In this document: positions 1-12,704 of the stretch, piece after piece
Layout: each line of letters opens with the position of its first letter
How positions within the stretch are numbered: the stretch's first letter is position 1
DNA from: a virus
DNA: 12,704 nucleotides
Strand: one strand, 5' to 3'
UHGV virus genome: UHGV-0239954
Position numbers and translations under genes: made by a program
Notes under the pieces: generated by a model
What the model was told of the DNA's origin: nothing
What the model saw: the letters and a program-made list of their open reading frames with translations, nothing else
The model's database searches: none

Positions 1-1364
1 TCTTCCTTTCTTGATTCTTTATAAACAATTGCTGCTGATTTTGCATACCATGAGTCAAAAAACCATTCTGCTTCTGTTGATGGAATGAAGCTCTTTTCTC
101 TTTTTGCATGCGAATTTTGATCGGTATCGGTTTTAATATCATTGAACCAAAAATTTGCCGACTGATAATTATCCTTCTCGTATCTTTTTATACCATACGG
201 ACCTGCTAGTTTTTTAACTATTTTTAGAACTTGCTCTTTTCTTCTGGTGTTTATCTTTGAAAGATTTGTAGGATAAATAACATTAAGTAAAGCCGCATCG
301 GCTTCTCTGTAATGTTTATCTTTTTCCAGATAACCTGGGGATTCTCCCCCTAAATCAAGCTGTAACGTTATTCTTTCATAACCTTTATCTATGAGGTGGT
401 TCAACCTCGTTGTTGAAAGAGTTTCATCCAGTTCATTGACTTTAGCTTCGCGTAGTAAATCAGAGACAAAAACAGAGTCTTTCTTCGAGAGTAGGTTTGA
501 CAAACGTTCCAGTCCAGAGGTCACCAGTGCAACGGAAGATGTGTTTAATCGGGCATCTTCTTCCCATGCTCCGGAATCTTCCATAACATAGAAATTGGCT
601 TTATCCAGATAAGCAATCAGCAGCGCAACCGACTTTAATCGGTCACCTTTTTGCCAATCTTCAGCGTTAATAGTACCAGTGTTGATTGCTTGTATAAGGA
701 GATCAAGGTAAAGACCTAACGCATCATTTTGTTTATGGTTCCACAGCTGCGGCTTGCCTTCTTCCTGCACATCTGCCATCACGGGGGAGTTGCTGTCAAA
801 TCGGATATGCACAGCATTCATTTGCACGGGAACTCCATCCAGTCGTTTTGGGTTGCTAATGACGTCCTGCATCCGCTTAATCTGGTCGGGCGTAGACATA
901 TAATCCCACAGGGTGAGCAGAACCTTTTTTGCGGCTACACTATTTCCCTGATCTGATACTAATGCCATATAGCCCCATAAACTATCCCTCAACCAGACAG
1001 CATCATAGTGGGTTTGTGCCGCTGTTTTGTCATCTTCGAAAGTAGAAGCAAGAATAAACGTTCCCCAGGGTTTCTCCGTCAACGTTAACTTTCGTGTGTT
1101 TTCTGTTAATGTTAGCAATCCTTGAATTTCGTCTTTGGTATAGTGGCTCTTTATTTCATTTTGTAATTTGGCTGAGTGAATCAAAAGACGATAATTAGGA
1201 TACTTATCTGGATTTAACGATAAATAACTTTTATCTGTTGCTGCCCCCGTGGAATTAAGAATGTTAAATACAGATTCACTCGTCACTTCTGCCCCTGTCG
1301 CCTGGCATGTGCCGCACGAAAATATACCAGCGAGCAGAAGAGTTAATGCAGATTTCCCTTTCAT
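1..1364 (-). CDS. Secreted glycoside hydrolase family 15-like protein (glucoamylase/trehalase-like); 3' end truncated by window edge
   Basis: Uninterrupted minus-strand frame from ATG at 1364-1362 to position 1, translated by hand with no stop; absent from the ORF track because it has no stop in the window. N-terminus MKGKSALTLLLAGIFSCGTCQA resembles a signal or lipoprotein peptide. Motifs HYDAVWLRDS and DSGAWEED resemble the GH15 W-x-RDS and catalytic WEE motifs. Region is visibly AT-rich compared with the element to its right. An in-frame alternative ATG lies at 1376. Confidence 0.55.
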   Translation of the reverse strand, partial: MKGKSALTLLLAGIFSCGTCQATGAEVTSESVFNILNSTGAATDKSYLSLNPDKYPNYRLLIHSAKLQNEIKSHYTKDEIQGLLTLTENTRKLTLTEKPWGTFILASTFEDDKTAAQTHYDAVWLRDSLWGYMALVSDQGNSVAAKKVLLTLWDYMSTPDQIKRMQDVISNPKRLDGVPVQMNAVHIRFDSNSPVMADVQEEGKPQLWNHKQNDALGLYLDLLIQAINTGTINAEDWQKGDRLKSVALLIAYLDKANFYVMEDSGAWEEDARLNTSSVALVTSGLERLSNLLSKKDSVFVSDLLREAKVNELDETLSTTRLNHLIDKGYERITLQLDLGGESPGYLEKDKHYREADAALLNVIYPTNLSKINTRRKEQVLKIVKKLAGPYGIKRYEKDNYQSANFWFNDIKTDTDQNSHAKREKSFIPSTEAEWFFDSWYAKSAAIVYKESRKE

Positions 1365-1597
1365 AAAATATTCCATCAATCGTTTGTTAAAAGCGTAGAT
1401 AACCACTTATTTAACAACTTGAAAATAAGGTGTTTTACCTGGGTTGTTACAAAAGGATTGCATTGCGTAAACGCTTTTTATTTACAACAAAATGGGGAAG
1501 TATTACGGCGATTGCGAAAAGTCTGAAGCGATTGAATTAAGATAATATAGAAAATCAGATACAGCAAAAATGGCAGATTGATCAGGTGAAGATAAAT

Positions 1598-1625
1598 TGG
1601 AGCGGGCGAAGGGAATCGAACCCTC
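1598..1625 (-). repeat. Partial tRNA-Gly 3' end (T-arm, 3' acceptor strand, CCA) = attachment-site repeat of an integrated element; not an intact tRNA
   Basis: Minus strand reads GAGGGTTCGATTCCCTTCGCCCGCTCCA: canonical T-loop GGTTCGATTCC, 7-nt acceptor 3' strand and CCA. This matches my recollection of the enterobacterial tRNA-Gly(CCC) glyU 3' end. The complementary 5' acceptor strand (GCGGGCG) and D/anticodon arms are absent from the adjacent ~90 nt, so only a ~28-nt fragment is present. An integrase gene starts 88 nt away. Confidence 0.6.
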
Positions 1626-1713
1626 ATAGCTAACCCATTGAATTGTGAACCAAAATAAGTAATCGCGGTACTTATCCCGGTAGTTGGTAGCGGTAGATTA
1701 CAAGGTAATTACC

Positions 1714-4614: not shown

Positions 4615-5610
4615 TTACACAGCTTGTCGGAAATTGATAACGCAGTCAGGGCGGCGCAGTCCAACATTGAACAGGCGATATGAGTCCATCACCATCGTCA
4701 TTTCGCGCTCATCATCCCACTGGCGATTGATAACGCTCTGCGCTTCGACTGTCACAAGTACAGACGCAGGCCGGAACAGCGTCGCCCGCGTCAGCGCTTC
4801 CTCTGAGGTAACGTCATAATCAGCGCCCAGTTCATGCCCGGTAATAGCTTCCTGCGGGTAACTGTTCAGCTCAATGACTCGTACCCCAGCGACATAGCCA
4901 ACTCGACGCCATGCGTAATCGTTGCCACTATCCCGGCTGTAACGGACGTTCATCAGCTTCTTATGTTCCATCAGGATGCTGAACCAAGCCGGGTCGATAA
5001 GCAGTACCAGCTCGGCCACCGGAATATCTTTCTCAGTGAGAAAGCGATTAGCAGCCGCTTTTACGACGTGAGCCAATTCGTTTGCGGCGTCCTCTTCGCT
5101 CCCCGCTGTCAGGTCGAGCGATACAACGTTATCCGTTAGTGGGTTAAACGTTGGTTGCAGTGTCGGCGGCGGTACAAAGTCAGTCGCTTTGATTAGCTGG
5201 ATGGTGTGCGCTTCGTCGTAGAATTTAGCGTGAGCAGTACCCATATTGCGGCTCAGCTCTGCGCGAAAGGTGGGCGCTGTCCAGTCGTCCTGATAGTCAA
5301 TCGGAATGCGGATATAGCTCAGCGTATCCACAGAGATAATCAGCTTATCCGACTTAACAGCGGTAGGCTCCAGCGATTGCCCTGCGGTTCTGCCCTTCAC
5401 CTCCAGATCACCACTCAGGCGATCAATGCGGTATTGGTTGCTGGCTTTCAGCGGCCTGTATGTAGACAGCCCCTCTGCCAGAAATACGGATTTGGACTCT
5501 AAACGGGTCTGGACATCCCGGTCATAAGCCTCGATGTGAATATCATTGTCGGATTCCACCCCGCCATAATGTGGGCGAAACAGATCGGGACTGTACGAAG
5601 TATCAGTCAT
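4615..5610 (-). CDS. Major capsid protein-like (T7 gp10-like, HK97-fold family), 331 aa
   Basis: ORF 4615-5655; preferred start is ATG at 5610 with TAGGAG 8 nt upstream (the two upstream ATGs lack a well-spaced SD). Segments KLIISVDTLSYIRIPIDYQD, LTEKDIPVAELVLLIDPAWFSILME and RPASVLVTVEAQSVINRQWDDE align in order and spacing with T7 gp10A segments KVITIDGLLTADVLIYDIED, LTKNYVPAADRVFYCDPDSYSAILAA and HRSAVGTVKLRDLALERARRANFQ as I recall them. Length is similar to gp10A. Confidence 0.6.
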   Translation of the reverse strand: MTDTSYSPDLFRPHYGGVESDNDIHIEAYDRDVQTRLESKSVFLAEGLSTYRPLKASNQYRIDRLSGDLEVKGRTAGQSLEPTAVKSDKLIISVDTLSYIRIPIDYQDDWTAPTFRAELSRNMGTAHAKFYDEAHTIQLIKATDFVPPPTLQPTFNPLTDNVVSLDLTAGSEEDAANELAHVVKAAANRFLTEKDIPVAELVLLIDPAWFSILMEHKKLMNVRYSRDSGNDYAWRRVGYVAGVRVIELNSYPQEAITGHELGADYDVTSEEALTRATLFRPASVLVTVEAQSVINRQWDDEREMTMVMDSYRLFNVGLRRPDCVINFRQAV

Positions 5611-5669
5611 AAACAAAACTCCTACGTAGGTTGATGAAGCCCGCGCCATCGTCATGGCACAGACGTGCG

Positions 5670-7290: not shown

Positions 7291-7304
7291 GAAATAATCC
7301 TCAG

Positions 7305-7538
7305 TTAGATAAGGCCATGACGACGCAACCAACGTCGCTCGCCAACGGAGCCACGCGGTCGCTGCCTTGGGTTCTGGTTTGGTGCTTGGCCGGGATCAGT
7401 TCGTCCTTCCCCGGACAGGTTCTGTGTCAGCACATCCCAGCCGCGTGATTCAAACGGGGCGTATCCCTCGCGCTGTTCGTCAAGGTTCACATAGAGATCA
7501 GGGTTAACGGCAGGGTGCAGCGGTTCGTTCTCTGCCAT
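7305..7538 (-). CDS. Hypothetical small protein (77 aa)
   Basis: ATG at 7538 overlaps the upstream stop (TGATG); the track start at 7541 is a GTG. Pro/Gly/Arg-rich, no recognisable motif. Confidence 0.4.
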   Translation of the reverse strand: MAENEPLHPAVNPDLYVNLDEQREGYAPFESRGWDVLTQNLSGEGRTDPGQAPNQNPRQRPRGSVGERRWLRRHGLI

Positions 7539-8948: not shown

Positions 8949-10838
8949 TCAGAGGAAGCGGGAGATGTAACCCCAATTGCAGTTTTCAGGGCGGTACAAC
9001 GCTGCCAGCTCATCAGGTACACCGGACGGCACCGGGGCAGAGTCGGCGTCATAGGTGATGGGGTCGCCATACAGAGCCAACGATGACCACAGCAGAAAAG
9101 CACGGGCAGGTTGACCGTCACGCCCGGCACGTCCGATCATCTGAACTAAATCGGGCAGGTCTTCGGGAACATAAGTGACAATTACGTTACGCACGCCAGA
9201 GATATCAGCCCCCAGCCCGAAGGCTTTAGTAGCAATCAGAACCGCGCCGGGCGTGCTGGCAAACCACGCAGCGTTAGCGTGACGCTGGTCGCGGCTCAGT
9301 CGCTCAACGTCAGAATGGTAAGGCCGGGCGCGGTCTCCCAGTTCGTTGAGATACGCATACAGCATCTTGATACTGTCCACCATCACCAGCGTCTTCTCAT
9401 CCAGCGGGAGGGCATCGACCAGACCAACGGCAGCCCGGCGCGTAGTTGCGCACTGCTGAACAGGAATAAGCTGGATGTTTTCACGGGCAGCACTGGCGCG
9501 GTAGGTGAGGAACTCGCCACGACAGCCAAGCTCTTTCATCAAGCCAGACTCATCACCTTTTCGCAGGGTCGCAGTAAACGCGCACCGCTGAGCATCCGGG
9601 AAGGCATTTTTCAGGGTGTGTTTCATTGCAGGGAAAGCGTCCCGGAACTCCCATTCATCAACGGTATGAACCTCGTCAATGATAAATCTGTCCACACCAG
9701 CGGCCATCAGCGCAGCCAGCACCTGATTGCCCGGCACCAGATGCTCAGGTGAAACTACGGCAACGTGGAAAGCGCCAGCAGCCAACCCCGCAAGCTGTTG
9801 CGCATTGCGTCGCCTCGGCAGCTTGTCGCCAAAGGCAACAGCGTGAACGCCAGTTTCTAGCAACTGCTGTAACACCTGCTGCTTGATGGTGTTTGTAGGC
9901 ACAACAATAACGGTCAGACCGTCATCAGAATCAGATTCAAATTGCAGGGCATAGGTGAATGCAGCCGTCTTTCCGTACCCGGTTGGCAGTACGGCCAATA
10001 CATCGCGGTCACGGGCAAATACGGCGGCAGCTACGTCCTGCTGGCCGGGTCTCCAGTCTCTGCCATCTAGCGGTGGTAACGGTACGAATGCCGGGCGGTC
10101 GCATTGCTCCAGCTCGCGGAACCTGTACGGCGCGGTAACCAGCGGCGGGATGGACGGCGGCAGGCCAGCACCCCCAACGTCACAATGCAGATTCAGCGTA
10201 TTGAATTTATCATCCGTGGGTTTCAGCTCACCGCACCACAACTGACGGAAAGCCGGGCAGTCACCCAGTCGCGTAAAGTCAGCATGGCGCATAGCTTCCA
10301 GCTTGCTCATGCCGCGACTGATACGACGCACGATCTTCTCATCGCAAATCAGAAACTCACGGCAGGCTTTGAGGAAGGCATTCTGCCCGGTTGTCGCTTC
10401 CGGGATGGAGTGCTCGCGCGGTTTAAGCGCAGCGTCATCAACGCGAACGCCGGGGAAATCTGGCGGCAGCGGCTCGGCGTACCGGGCAGGCTTTTTGTTT
10501 AGCCACATCTCCAGCTCAGCGCGGCGGCAGTGGATTGCATCGCCCGGCTGGATAATCTGGCGCAACCCGGCATCAGCGCGGCGGGAATGTCGCTTGCGGC
10601 CAATTCCATTCGCCTCTTTCCATTCACGGAACGACATAACTGAACCATCTGCATTGTAGAAATACTGCCCGGAAACGGTGTTAAGCGCTGCCTTCACTGG
10701 TCGCTGTTTAACAGGGCATAACTTGGAATGAGGTATAACGATCTTATCCGCAACCAGTTGCTGAGCATCCGCAGGCTCGGTGTTCAGCGGTTCGGCGTCA
10801 GCGGCCAGCGTAAGCAAGCGGTTTAAATTGGTTGGCAT
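8949..10838 (-). CDS. RecQ-family SF2 DNA helicase with ~275-aa N-terminal extension; putative replication protein of the element
   Basis: ATG at 10838 with GGAG upstream. Ordered helicase motifs match RecQ: RPGQQ...LPTGYGKTAAF (motifs 0/I), TVIVVPTNTIKQQV (Ia), FIIDEVH (II), FTATL (III), IATKAFGLGADISGVRNVIVTYVPEDLPDLVQMIGRAGRDG (V/VI). No RQC/HRDC region follows. The N-terminal part has no clear match apart from an excisionase-like AIHCRRAELEMWL segment. Confidence 0.88.
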   Translation of the reverse strand: MPTNLNRLLTLAADAEPLNTEPADAQQLVADKIVIPHSKLCPVKQRPVKAALNTVSGQYFYNADGSVMSFREWKEANGIGRKRHSRRADAGLRQIIQPGDAIHCRRAELEMWLNKKPARYAEPLPPDFPGVRVDDAALKPREHSIPEATTGQNAFLKACREFLICDEKIVRRISRGMSKLEAMRHADFTRLGDCPAFRQLWCGELKPTDDKFNTLNLHCDVGGAGLPPSIPPLVTAPYRFRELEQCDRPAFVPLPPLDGRDWRPGQQDVAAAVFARDRDVLAVLPTGYGKTAAFTYALQFESDSDDGLTVIVVPTNTIKQQVLQQLLETGVHAVAFGDKLPRRRNAQQLAGLAAGAFHVAVVSPEHLVPGNQVLAALMAAGVDRFIIDEVHTVDEWEFRDAFPAMKHTLKNAFPDAQRCAFTATLRKGDESGLMKELGCRGEFLTYRASAARENIQLIPVQQCATTRRAAVGLVDALPLDEKTLVMVDSIKMLYAYLNELGDRARPYHSDVERLSRDQRHANAAWFASTPGAVLIATKAFGLGADISGVRNVIVTYVPEDLPDLVQMIGRAGRDGQPARAFLLWSSLALYGDPITYDADSAPVPSGVPDELAALYRPENCNWGYISRFL

Positions 10839-10859
10839 GGTGCAAACTCCAGAGAAGGA

Positions 10860-11297
10860 TTAAATACTACGCGCCCAAGCTAAATCTTCGGGTGTCCGAC
10901 TTTCGATTAACGCTAACTGCCAGCGTAAGTAATCCTCATGTTCTTTGGTGTATCGGGGAATACCTATAGGATTTTTCACAGCGTCCGGGTTAGTCCTCGC
11001 GACTTCCCTGCAATCTCGGTCGAAAGCCCAGCGGGCAACTTCCACCGATTCGTAATCCGTAAATCGGTACGGCCTTGTGCGGGAACGTACACGCCAGACA
11101 ACTTGCCCTAATTCGTGGATGTATATGCCGCAAAGTTCATCCGGGCTTGGGTGATACAATGGCTCCCCATAATTCTGGCGCATGAACTTCACAAACTTTT
11201 GATTGCGGCGGGCACGCCGTGCTTTTTCGCGTCGCTCCTCGGCTTCATACTCTTTTTGAATGGCGGCACGGTCTACCGGGATAAGTGTTTTGCTCAT
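10860..11297 (-). CDS. Hypothetical protein (145 aa), first gene of the leftward operon
   Basis: ORF 10860-11474; preferred start is ATG at 11297 with GGAGA 9 nt upstream. The longer N-terminal extension would run through the iteron-like repeats. Basic N-terminal region (EERREKARRARRNQK); no family recognised. Confidence 0.55.
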   Translation of the reverse strand: MSKTLIPVDRAAIQKEYEAEERREKARRARRNQKFVKFMRQNYGEPLYHPSPDELCGIYIHELGQVVWRVRSRTRPYRFTDYESVEVARWAFDRDCREVARTNPDAVKNPIGIPRYTKEHEDYLRWQLALIESRTPEDLAWARSI

Positions 11298-11366
11298 ACA
11301 GTGATCTCCAGAAATTAATGTGAGTTTGGAACGGGGCGCAGGACGGAAGCGCCGGGAGTGTGGCAG

Positions 11367-11719
11367 TCTGTCCTCCTTAGTAGTTACCATCATTGCAATG
11401 GCGTCGGAGTTCTGTCTCTCTTTAGTAGTGATCTTCATCCAGTAATTTGGATTAAATGCAGACACGGCGGGCATTGCAGCGAGATGGAGAGTAGGCGGGC
11501 TTGCGGTTTCAGTCTGCCTTAGTACAAGTTTCTAGTGGTCGGTAGCCTTTCCCTTATTAGTAGCTCTCATTTATCCGGGGCTTGTCTTCCCACACAGTAG
11601 CCGTCTTCTAAAGCAACCACACCACAATCCACTACTGGCAAGGAGTTAGCAGACACGGTGATGTAGGCTACTCAAGTGTGGATTTGTAGGCGTTTTATAG
11701 TATCTGTCCTTCTTATTAG
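11367..11719. repeat. Iteron-like direct repeats (consensus about TCTGTCCTYCTTAGTAG), candidate origin or operator array
   Basis: Copies at 11367-11383, 11411-11428 and 11703-11719, with diverged copies at 11513-11525, 11546-11563 and 11581-11600. All are in the same orientation with irregular spacing, immediately upstream of the operon and next to an AT-rich tract (about 11725-11830). Confidence 0.5.
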
Positions 11720-11831
11720 ACACCTTTAAATTTCATTAATAAATACAGTTAGTTAAACGGTTATCTTTATTACTTATAAATTTCACAGATCAATAAATTA
11801 AAATTGATCGGAATTATCAGCTTTAATTTTC

Positions 11832-11851
11832 TTGACAGCTATTTGTATAAT
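11832..11851 (+). promoter_or_regulatory. Promoter-like hexamers TTGACA / TATAAT (non-canonical 8-bp spacing)
   Basis: TTGACA at 11832-11837 and TATAAT at 11846-11851 are perfect consensus hexamers but too close to act as one sigma70 promoter. Each could pair with a weaker partner. No plus-strand ORF follows. Confidence 0.2.
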
Positions 11852-12029
11852 GGTTTTAAGAAGTTGTATCGGAGTGAGCGACTGGCAGTGAGCGTAGCGA
11901 ACGATAAGCCAGTCGGCGAAGAACGAAGAGTATGAGATGACTTGTCATCGAATACGATGAGTGATTGAGCGGTACGAACGGAGATACGCTGTATAACAGT
12001 TAGAACAGTTAACAAGCTGATTAATGCTT

Positions 12030-12194
12030 TCAATGATTATCTGAATCAGTGTTATCAATTCCGAAATAACTCTTCCTCTCCTGTATTGATTCAATCATTT
12101 CTTTCATTTCAAGAATCACTACCAGCTCAGCTAATAACCGTCTCAGTTCAACATTTGAATCATTAGCACGACACTTATTTTCTGAGTATTCCAT
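12030..12194 (-). CDS. Hypothetical small protein (54 aa)
   Basis: Not in the ORF track (under 60 aa). ATG at 12194 preceded by GGGAG 8 nt upstream. Sequence MEYSENKCRANDSNVELRRLLAELVVILEMKEMIESIQERKSYFGIDNTDSDNH. Lies between the GC-rich structured region and the iteron region. Confidence 0.3.
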   Translation of the reverse strand: MEYSENKCRANDSNVELRRLLAELVVILEMKEMIESIQERKSYFGIDNTDSDNH

Positions 12195-12299
12195 ACGGTC
12201 AACTCCCTACGGTATAAGTCCATTCCAATCCGTTCACAGATTACATTGCTGAATGATCATCAGACAAGTGGCAGTCATCATCACCAAGTTAGAGTCGTC

Positions 12300-12600
12300 T
12301 CGCTACATATCCCCGCCGGATTGCCAGCGCGGCTAACACGGTTGTGAGGAGCGCCGAGCATCACAGCGGACGCAGGCCGATGAACGAGCCGTAGGTGAGT
12401 GAAAGCGGACTCGCGGACGCGAGAAGCGCAGCAGCAGGCGGCGACTGATAAACGAGCCAGACAGGTGAGTGCAAGCAGGCGTAAGCACTGCACCGTTGAG
12501 AGGTGTGGAGACGGCGGAACGTCTCCGCGTTAGGGAGGTGGATTTGGGGAGGATGTGCAAGGCACACCTCGCTCCACCCACGGGGTGTCGGTGGGTAGGG
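12300..12600. ncRNA. GC-rich structured non-coding region with paired direct repeats and hairpins (candidate regulatory RNA or leader)
   Basis: All three plus-strand frames contain stops; the minus-strand ORFs overlap in multiple frames and have R/S/P-rich translations. Two ~28-nt direct repeats (12369-12396 GATGAACGAGCCGTAGGTGAGTGAAAGC; 12437-12466 GATAAACGAGCCAGACAGGTGAGTGCAAGC). Perfect hairpin GGAGACG-GCGGAA-CGTCTCC at 12498-12517. Further stems at 12453-12483 and 12563-12587. Confidence 0.25.
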
Positions 12601-12704
12601 GTATAACGCTAATTGGTTAAGTGTACACATGTACGCTGAAATCATTAAAAGCCTATAGAAACAGCATGTAACCCAGCACCACGACATAACCAATTATCGT
12701 TGAA

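Follow-up and report, generated by a model that had tools for sequence, protein, structure and literature searches.

Promoter-Like Repeats Upstream of a RecQ-Like Helicase Gene in an Apparently Undescribed Satellite of T7-Type Phages

Introduction

The closest described systems to the locus analyzed here are the phage satellites of the cf-PICI, P4, PICI/SaPI, PLE, and PICMI types. To our knowledge, the well-studied satellite families all parasitize temperate or large virulent phages, which they sense via repressors or specific inducer proteins. Our subject is the virus genome UHGV-0239954, a stretch of 12,704 nucleotides (hereafter the window, always meaning this whole stretch), which is identical to chromosomal sequence of Escherichia coli strain 5735 (NZ_CP154887.1) and carries a chromosomal island with a RecQ-like helicase gene. 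Like the satellites above, the island is small and integrated at a tRNA gene, and it has an integrase, few virion genes, a capsid of its own, and a packaging site of the helper type. Unlike them, it appears to depend on a virulent T7-family podophage as its helper, and its expression is apparently wired to promoters of the helper polymerase instead of a repressor/antirepressor switch. It encodes only a capsid and a scaffold, without the portal, protease, connector, and small terminase of cf-PICIs, and it differs from PICIs and P4 in having no AlpA, Pri-Rep, or P4 alpha-type primase-helicase, its sole helicase being a RecQ-like enzyme of superfamily 2 (SF2).

A second point of comparison is phage T7 itself, whose primary origin consists of two tandem phage promoters (phi1.1A/1.1B) and an AT-rich tract, with phiOL at the left end serving as a secondary origin. 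The island likewise has tandem elements of promoter-like sequence that adjoin an AT-rich tract, and the surrounding region is similar to a phage left end. An earlier note on the window had read these direct repeats and the AT-rich tract as a replication module of the iteron type, served by the helicase, or alternatively as operator sites of a 145-amino-acid (aa) basic protein encoded first in the operon. From the comparisons below, we consider that the repeats are probably copies of the promoter-like element of a helper phage's single-subunit RNA polymerase, of the type present in Pantoea phage LIMEzero and in Bonnellvirus, and not helicase iterons. Like the promoters of the T7 family and LIMEzero, they are asymmetric motifs of about 20–28 nt oriented as the downstream genes, and their (C/T)ACTAAGGAG core, the 3′ half of the motif, resembles CACTA(T/A)AGGGAGA of T7/T3 and looks like the −7 to +4 part of those promoters. 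They differ in lying on a chromosomal island, five of them clustered before one operon, whereas the phage copies are single and spread over the genome. The satellite consensus CTACTAAGGAGGACAGA also matches none of the three phages compared here (LIMEzero, Lidtsur, and J8-65) exactly, and the promoters are putative in satellite and phages alike.

Results

Dispersed Repeats Upstream of the Operon

Five repeats of ∼17–28 bp, all on the minus strand, lie at 11367–11730, upstream of a minus-strand operon. Allowing up to three mismatches, we counted three copies of the 16-mer TACTAAGGAGGACAGA (at 11367, 11509, and 11703) against a chance expectation of 0.08, and none of 200 shuffles reached three copies. 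Two further, diverged copies are found at 11412–11428 and 11546–11563. The three well-conserved copies of the earlier note are thus confirmed, but its three diverged copies come down to two, for a total of five instead of six. When extended in the 5′ direction the repeats form a longer unit, as in repeat e below, variants of which are present in the diverged upstream modules of relatives. Tandem Repeats Finder reported nothing, and the irregular spacings of 155, 39, 96, and 46 nt indicate scattered copies instead of a regular tandem array. The five copies are as follows, with scores from a position weight matrix (PWM) built from phage sites only and described in the next section.

11367–11394, minus strand: repeat e, gcAATGATGGTAACTACTAAGGAGGACAGA; best promoter-like copy, phage-only PWM score 23.9
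11412–11439, minus strand: repeat d, GATGAAGATCACTACTAAAGAGAGACAGA; score 15.0, third in the window
11509–11536, minus strand: repeat c, cttgTACTAAGGCAGACTGA; 3′ half conserved and 5′ half diverged, outside the top scores
11546–11571, minus strand: repeat b, AATGAGAGCTACTAATAAGGGAAAGG; score 15.1, second in the window
11703–11730, minus strand: repeat a, TTTAAAGGTGTCTAATAAGAAGGACAGA; at the edge of the AT-rich tract, score 13.2, fourth in the window

Repeat e lies 70 nt before the ATG of the 145-aa gene and, in elements that lack this gene, 86 nt before the ATG of the helicase. The 5′ half of repeat a, TTTAAAGG, is that of the LIMEzero promoter at 7294. A scan of the leader for sigma-70 promoters and terminators found no minus-strand promoter over threshold. 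The repeats are conserved in homologous elements: E2348/69 and the related locus L016 carry the variants ...CTACTAATAAGGAGA and AATGAAGGTATCTACTAAGGAG, a Rosenbergiella copy carries the variant TTATGAAAGTATCTATTACAGAGGCAC twice, and some relatives have one extra inverted copy beyond the AT-rich tract, as do the phages.

A Related Motif at Promoter-Like Places in Three Phages

A motif of 14–22 nt, (T/A)ATGAA(A/G)G(T/C)A..C..TAAGGA, recurs in the genomes of LIMEzero, which carries (T/G)ATGAAGGCAAGCACTAAGGA, and of J8-65 and Lidtsur, which carry TAAATGAAAGTAACTG. It occupies five syntenic places, all of them filled in LIMEzero and Lidtsur and four in J8-65. The first is at the phage left end, on the opposite strand and beside an AT-rich tract; the second lies behind a hairpin and before the replication genes; the third and fourth are directly after the RNA-polymerase gene and about 240–410 nt beyond it. 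The fifth, present only in LIMEzero (33866) and Lidtsur (33127), is inside the large internal-virion-protein gene, where it may act as an internal promoter or serve otherwise. The GenBank record of LIMEzero (FR751545.1) labels two of these sites (7294–7313 and 20330–20349) as "putative phage specific promoter," and in related phages promoters were found as a short conserved motif at few intergenic sites, the far left end included (PMC3765740). By sequence, the satellite repeats belong to the same family as this phage cis element, which is located where promoters would be expected.

The PWM was built from 14 phage sites, with no satellite sequence, and the window was scanned on both strands. 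Repeats e, b, d, and a gave the top four scores in the 12.7 kb, all on the operon strand; the block-shuffle maximum was 17.6, and none of 100 shuffles reached the 23.9 of repeat e. With the same PWM, the highest scores also fell in the equivalent upstream region of six relatives: L004 (26.5), L003, L010, L011 (three sites, including an inverted one), L016, and L002. The LIMEzero site at 20740 has 17 of 21 bases in common with repeat e and with the L004 copy. None of the three phages encodes the RecQ-like helicase or its N-terminal domain, and the satellite helicase therefore cannot be what reads the motif in the phages. Since helicase-free phages share the motif and the repeats persist in elements without the 145-aa gene (see below), the repeats are most likely promoters of the helper polymerase, and not iterons or operators.

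Several results weigh against this assignment. The exact satellite consensus is absent from Lidtsur, and exact and near-exact searches of IMG/VR for it returned only unrelated single matches and no phage with matching repeats. A PWM made from the three best LIMEzero sites alone did not rise above noise in the satellites, and the scores of repeats b, d, and a (13–15) are individually within the shuffle range, so that these copies draw their weight from position and recurrence. At some phage sites the ATG of the motif is an annotated start codon, which makes it possible that the motif works at the level of RNA or translation. No copy of the motif precedes the capsid or any other satellite gene, so that one promoter cluster would have to serve an operon of about 8 kb. 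The copies face away from the AT-rich tract and none faces into it, unlike the T7 primary origin, and the phage sites are themselves predicted promoters.

A Probable Control Region Resembling a Phage Left End

On the operon strand, the AT content of the window peaks (over 150 nt) directly 5′ of the repeats, where the earlier note had also placed an AT-rich stretch. This tract holds a 14-nt AT-rich inverted repeat (11795–11808/11816–11829), which is conserved in L010, and two GATC sites. It is part of a longer non-coding region with the following features.

11713–11862: AT-rich tract, 22% GC, lowest 150-nt stretch in the window, reaching slightly past 11830
11871–12030, minus strand: non-coding stretch, rich in C (pyrimidine-rich as read on the operon strand), preceding the AT-rich tract; GC skew +0.30 to +0.37 on the plus strand
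12281–12600, minus strand: G+C-rich conserved non-coding "block B," 60–66% GC, with internal direct repeats; conserved to Rosenbergiella

At the left end of J8-65, positions 351–550 have a GC skew of −0.26 to −0.36 and are followed by a tract of 29% GC. The two regions have in common the order G+C-rich, C-rich (skew about −0.3), AT-rich, and on this resemblance the non-coding stretch of the island, in which the motif copies come next on the minus strand, is read as the satellite version of the phage left-end control region. In block B, RNAalifold predicted a long hairpin with five pairs showing compensatory changes and a weak covariation term of −0.72.

A second phage-like feature lies outside the window. 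An 88-nt homolog of the phage right-end/terminal-repeat junction, CCTCCC-TC(G/A)AC (hyphen at the junction), was present in most copies examined, namely in six of the compared loci, with E-values of 1e-6 to 5e-10. The terminal repeat of J8-65 starts at 40723 (CCTCCC-TCGAC), and the satellites keep CCTCCCTCAAC preceded by AAAAATTG. In strain 5735 (locus L001, in which coordinates equal window coordinates plus 5052), the homolog lies about 1.5 kb past the window and ∼2.5 kb from the repeats.

L001 19252–19339: junction homolog
L002 13537–13624: junction homolog
L003 13353–13440: junction homolog
L008 709–796: junction homolog
L010 1698–1784: junction homolog
L011 1440–1514: junction homolog

The homology emerged only in BLAST with a word size of 7 against two chosen Bonnellvirus genomes; 50,697 phage records compared with the non-coding region by megablast and blastn gave no match. 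L004 and L030, the E2348/69-type copies, yielded no such homolog. The site is probably where the terminase cuts.

Three smaller features of the non-coding region were also noted. Between the serine recombinase gene and the window end at 12704, L001 17759–18016 is a non-coding block of ∼260 nt that hardly varies in any of the satellites, including those with helicase identity down at ∼70%; the block has no Rfam match and holds a TATAAT-like box and two hairpins (CTCGATGT...ACATCGAG and GTGATTCATCAC). An 18-nt inverted repeat at window 12605–12701 (89% complementary, arms 61 nt apart) lies inside an insertion of ∼110 nt that is present in L001, L002, and L008 and absent from L003, L004, and L010, and that looks like a small inserted element. 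On the minus strand, window 12030–12194 is a 54-aa open reading frame (ORF) for a hypothetical protein (WP_165689111.1) with no family match, and its 5′ part is within an insertion of ∼200 nt found only in L001 and L006.

Identity and Distribution of the Island

The island is conserved, measures ∼14.5 kb, and is integrated at tRNA-Leu (leuX), as in E2348/69, ARS-C101, and N9, or at tRNA-Gly, as in strain 5735. Its gene order runs from a serine recombinase through 1.3–2.3 kb of non-coding sequence to the optional 145-aa gene, the helicase, small genes, a scaffold-like gene, the major capsid gene, HNH, endonuclease VII (EndoVII), variable cargo, and the integrase, and a single strand carries every gene except that of the tyrosine integrase. 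The integrase end is represented in the window by two features.

1684–2940: tyrosine integrase (Pfam)
1610–1624: tRNA/tmRNA-like 3′-end (att) fragment beside the satellite integrase

ARAGORN found no tRNA, and an Rfam scan of the window and the upstream 5.7 kb returned nothing relevant. Matches to scaffold, HNH, and EndoVII proteins were found in the element. Among its ORFs, searches with Pfam and PHROGs detected no portal, terminase, protease, or tail genes, nor any head-tail connectors, small terminase, AlpA, or Pri-Rep. The capsid protein is closest to those of Autographiviridae, with 56% aa identity to Bonnellvirus (Lidtsur, J8-65, and others) and 51% to LIMEzero. Taken together, the integrase and tRNA site, the incomplete set of virion genes, the Bonnellvirus-like capsid, and the phage-end homolog indicate that the island is a satellite of T7-family podophages, most likely from a family that appears to be undescribed; in the searchable literature we found no description of satellites of Autographiviridae or T7-family podophages. 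The satellite-like nature implied in the earlier note is borne out by the integrase at a tRNA gene, the sub-phage size, the restriction of virion genes to capsid and scaffold, and the phage-type end site.

Among complete E. coli genomes, the capsid and helicase genes were each found once in 59 of 5426. Family members also occur in Enterobacter, Citrobacter, Cronobacter, Kosakonia, Trabulsiella, and Rosenbergiella. One Logan contig of 14,774 bp (L030) comprises exactly one element with the 25-nt 3′ end of tRNA-Leu at its ends, a terminal repeat that fits an excised circle and an integrated copy alike. In most E. coli copies, nucleotide identity to the window is 90–95% for the capsid gene (window 4615–5655) and only 60–80% for the helicase gene. 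Few E. coli copies carry the helicase allele of the window, which has a 100% match in an Enterobacter bugandensis copy (L008). The contrast between capsid and helicase, together with the E. bugandensis match, points to recent transfer between genera and to module exchange.

The RecQ-Like Helicase and Its N-Terminal Domain

The helicase, a core gene of the family that evolves faster than the capsid, is annotated as "DEAD/DEAH box helicase" in NZ_CP154887.1 and is divided as follows.

8949–10838, minus strand: SF2 helicase, 629 aa, first core gene of the long minus-strand operon
9081–10058, minus strand: RecQ-like two-lobe helicase core (aa 261–586), followed by a 43-aa tail
10059–10838, minus strand: orphan N-terminal domain (aa 1–260)

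Pfam assigned DEAD to aa 264–426 (DEAD/ResIII together spanning aa 262–426) and Helicase_C to aa 480–575. The best solved relatives are bacterial RecQ (1oyw, 4tmu; E ∼1e-23) and human WRN, RECQ1, and BLM, aligned only over aa 260–586, which correspond to the two RecA-like lobes. The family alignment keeps motifs I (GYGKT), II (DEVH), III (TAT), and VI (GRAGRDG), and with RecQ and DpdF helicases the protein has in common the two-lobe SF2 core, RecQ motif 0 (RPGQ), DEVH, and GRAGRDG. As the earlier note had it, this SF2 RecQ-like enzyme is the only helicase of the element; it is also its only replication-type gene.

The helicase is RecQ-like but falls below the level of RecQ family membership. 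It scored 131.7 bits with the NCBIfam model TIGR00614 (recQ_fam; cut-off 219.8) and 135.8 with the recQ equivalog (cut-off 640), and Pfam found neither the RQC domain with its zinc-binding and winged-helix parts (PF16124, PF09382) nor HRDC (PF00570). In the search for relatives, true RecQ matches carried RQC/zinc-binding domains, whereas members of the satellite family did not. With the PADLOC "DpdF" model PDLC02858, the helicase scored 1053 bits over aa 111–629, matching the full 504-position profile, against only 108 bits with NCBIfam DpdF (cut-off 550). None of the Dpd genes (dpdA/B/C and others) is near it, its neighbors being capsid, scaffold, HNH, EndoVII, integrase, and small unknown genes. 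PDLC02858 was evidently built from this satellite helicase family, and defense-finder pipelines may consequently mislabel the satellite helicase as DpdF, a Dpd component.

The N-terminal 260 aa, mildly basic with a pI of 8.9, set the protein apart from RecQ and DpdF helicases. They had no match in Pfam, NCBIfam, PHROGs, or the PDB; a phmmer search of 1.84 billion representative proteins gave 12 matches, all of them members of the helicase's own family or fragments, and no phage record encodes the domain. The novel N-terminal domain of the earlier note is accordingly retained, as an orphan of ∼260 aa. Acting on satellite DNA, whether to unwind it, to replicate it, or to process concatemers, is the single most likely function of the helicase, although we advance it tentatively; interference with the helper or counter-defense are alternatives. 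The orphan domain, we would guess, gives the enzyme its specificity, whether for DNA or for a helper protein.

The Optional 145-Amino-Acid Gene

Between the repeats and the helicase, strain 5735 carries one more gene.

10860–11297, minus strand: optional gene for a 145-aa basic protein (pI 9.3), inserted with a duplicated ribosome-binding region (TCTGGAG)

The protein had no family match in Pfam, PHROGs, NCBIfam, or PADLOC. Its gene is missing from most relatives (L003, L004, L006, L007, L009, L010, L016, and L030), and these eight retain the repeats at an equal distance to the start of the operon, that is, to the helicase start codon. As a separate observation, the ribosome-binding region of the gene (11300–11322, CTGGAGATCACTGTATG) resembles sequence 5′ of and inside repeat d (11427–11449, CTGGATGAAGATCACTACTAAAG), which suggests a local duplication in the history of the leader.

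Alternative Explanations for the Repeats

Whether the repeats also mark an origin of replication is a separate matter. T7-type origins pair phage promoters with an adjoining AT-rich tract, and on that model the repeats may double as a start of replication; the promoter copies and the 22% GC tract would then form a transcription-activated origin for the helper replisome, which the helicase would help to open or extend. We regard this as a possibility, and a doubtful one, that is compatible with the repeats being helper promoters. It draws on the tandem copies adjoining the window's most AT-rich tract, on the phage motif beside the left-end AT-rich tract and the two copies right after the RNA-polymerase gene, and on the helicase as the one replication-type gene. 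However, T7 transcription runs into the AT-rich tract whereas the copies here point away from it, the element has no recognizable primase or initiator, and it brings an SF2 helicase that T7 origins do not need. An iteron origin, in which the N-terminal domain would bind the repeats, the AT-rich tract would unwind, and the helicase would be a self-contained initiator, is improbable. At least three direct repeats beyond chance do lie beside the AT-rich element, just upstream of a helicase with a basic orphan domain, and the presence of such repeats, an AT-rich tract, and a helicase gene within 1 kb recalls the iteron origins of plasmids and SaPIs/PICIs. Initiators, SV40 T antigen and PICI Rep among them, likewise typically combine an N-terminal binding domain with a helicase. 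Yet the motif occurs in phages without the helicase, the irregular spacing gives no helically phased array, and helicase allele and repeat type do not co-vary: the helicase of L010 is only 70% identical to that of the window while the repeats are the same, and L004 likewise shows no co-variation. We also know of no SF2 RecQ-like replication initiator. What had been called a replication module is therefore real in its parts, namely the helicase, the repeats, and the AT-rich tract, but is unlikely in its iteron/Rep form; if there is an origin, a T7-type, promoter-dependent one fits better.

The repeats might instead be recognition sites of the small terminase in helper packaging, like cosB R sites or pac boxes. 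We think this somewhat less probable still than iterons: the motif lies within a region that mimics the phage left end, many of the satellites carry the phage cut site, and one phage copy is about 280 nt from the terminal repeat, but the other three or four phage copies lie well away from the ends, in positions that promoters typically take, and the cut-site homolog of the window's element is some 2.5 kb away from its repeats. There is only a slim chance that the repeats are remnants of gene starts, either Shine–Dalgarno (SD)-like sequences (TAA plus GGAGG) or starts of small peptides (MKITTKE/MMVTTKE), with no cis-regulatory role. The motif does contain ATG, TAA, and AAGGAGG; copies d and e, at a distance of 45 nt from one another, share the reading frame of the 145-aa ORF; and some phage copies coincide with annotated start codons. 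But no start codon follows the SD-like part at the right distance, L006 does not keep the frame, the two copies in L011 are separated by 49 nt, the LIMEzero promoter copies have no ATG, and the left-end phage copy is non-coding, with an ORF that J8-65 and Lidtsur do not both conserve. Least credible of all, to the point of being negligible, are operators for the 145-aa protein. That protein is basic and is encoded first in the operon in strain 5735, but its gene is an optional insertion that is absent from the eight relatives named above, where the repeats stay in place, and this refutes the operator proposal. Two related readings were also set aside: starts of small ORFs or a repeated peptide MK(V/I)(S/T)TKE, for which register and frame were unconserved, and a CsrA-type or SD-decoy RNA, dropped because the phage motif is found at DNA sites of both orientations.

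Proposed Cycle and Significance

With the repeats as helper-polymerase promoters, the island would be silent at its tRNA gene until a helper infects and makes its RNA polymerase. The enzyme would initiate at the repeats and read the single minus-strand operon of the 145-aa gene (where present), helicase, small genes, scaffold, capsid, HNH, and EndoVII, and satellite expression would thereby be coupled to infection by the helper. The helicase would be made first among the core genes and act on satellite DNA, which would be cleaved where it carries the phage-type end site; capsids composed of the island's own capsid and scaffold proteins would then take it up via the portal, terminase, and tail of the helper. 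It is conceivable, though we rate it as rather unlikely, that the whole amounts to a satellite without a repressor switch that copies the promoters, left end, and cut site of its helper and replicates at a T7-type origin served by the RecQ-like helicase, which would then represent a new class of satellite replication protein.

If true, a satellite of T7-family podophages would represent a simpler and so far undescribed kind of parasitism, based on promoter mimicry, a small capsid of its own, and a borrowed cut site. Phage therapy and biocontrol make use of such phages, among them Bonnellvirus and relatives infecting E. coli, Enterobacter, Klebsiella, and Pantoea, and the variable cargo of the island includes AbiTii and restriction-modification genes. 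The helicase also lends itself to a clean test of what a RecQ-like SF2 enzyme that carries an orphan domain does in a mobile element.

Neighboring Islands and Variable Cargo

In strain 5735, identical islands of ∼4 kb lie on either side of the satellite, next to tRNA-Gly (L001 2484–6514 and 21497–25527; window 1–1680), in a tandem-island arrangement at a single att site. Each encodes an integrase (WP_023352893), a DUF4145 protein, and two hypothetical proteins. Within the satellite family the cargo sites vary, at L002 1796–2698, L003 790–2941, L004 2981–3883, and L030 576–2431. AbiTii or a cytosine methyltransferase is encoded between EndoVII and the integrase, a position without a cargo gene in strain 5735, and some copies carry a methylase and an Eco29kI-type restriction enzyme near the recombinase end.

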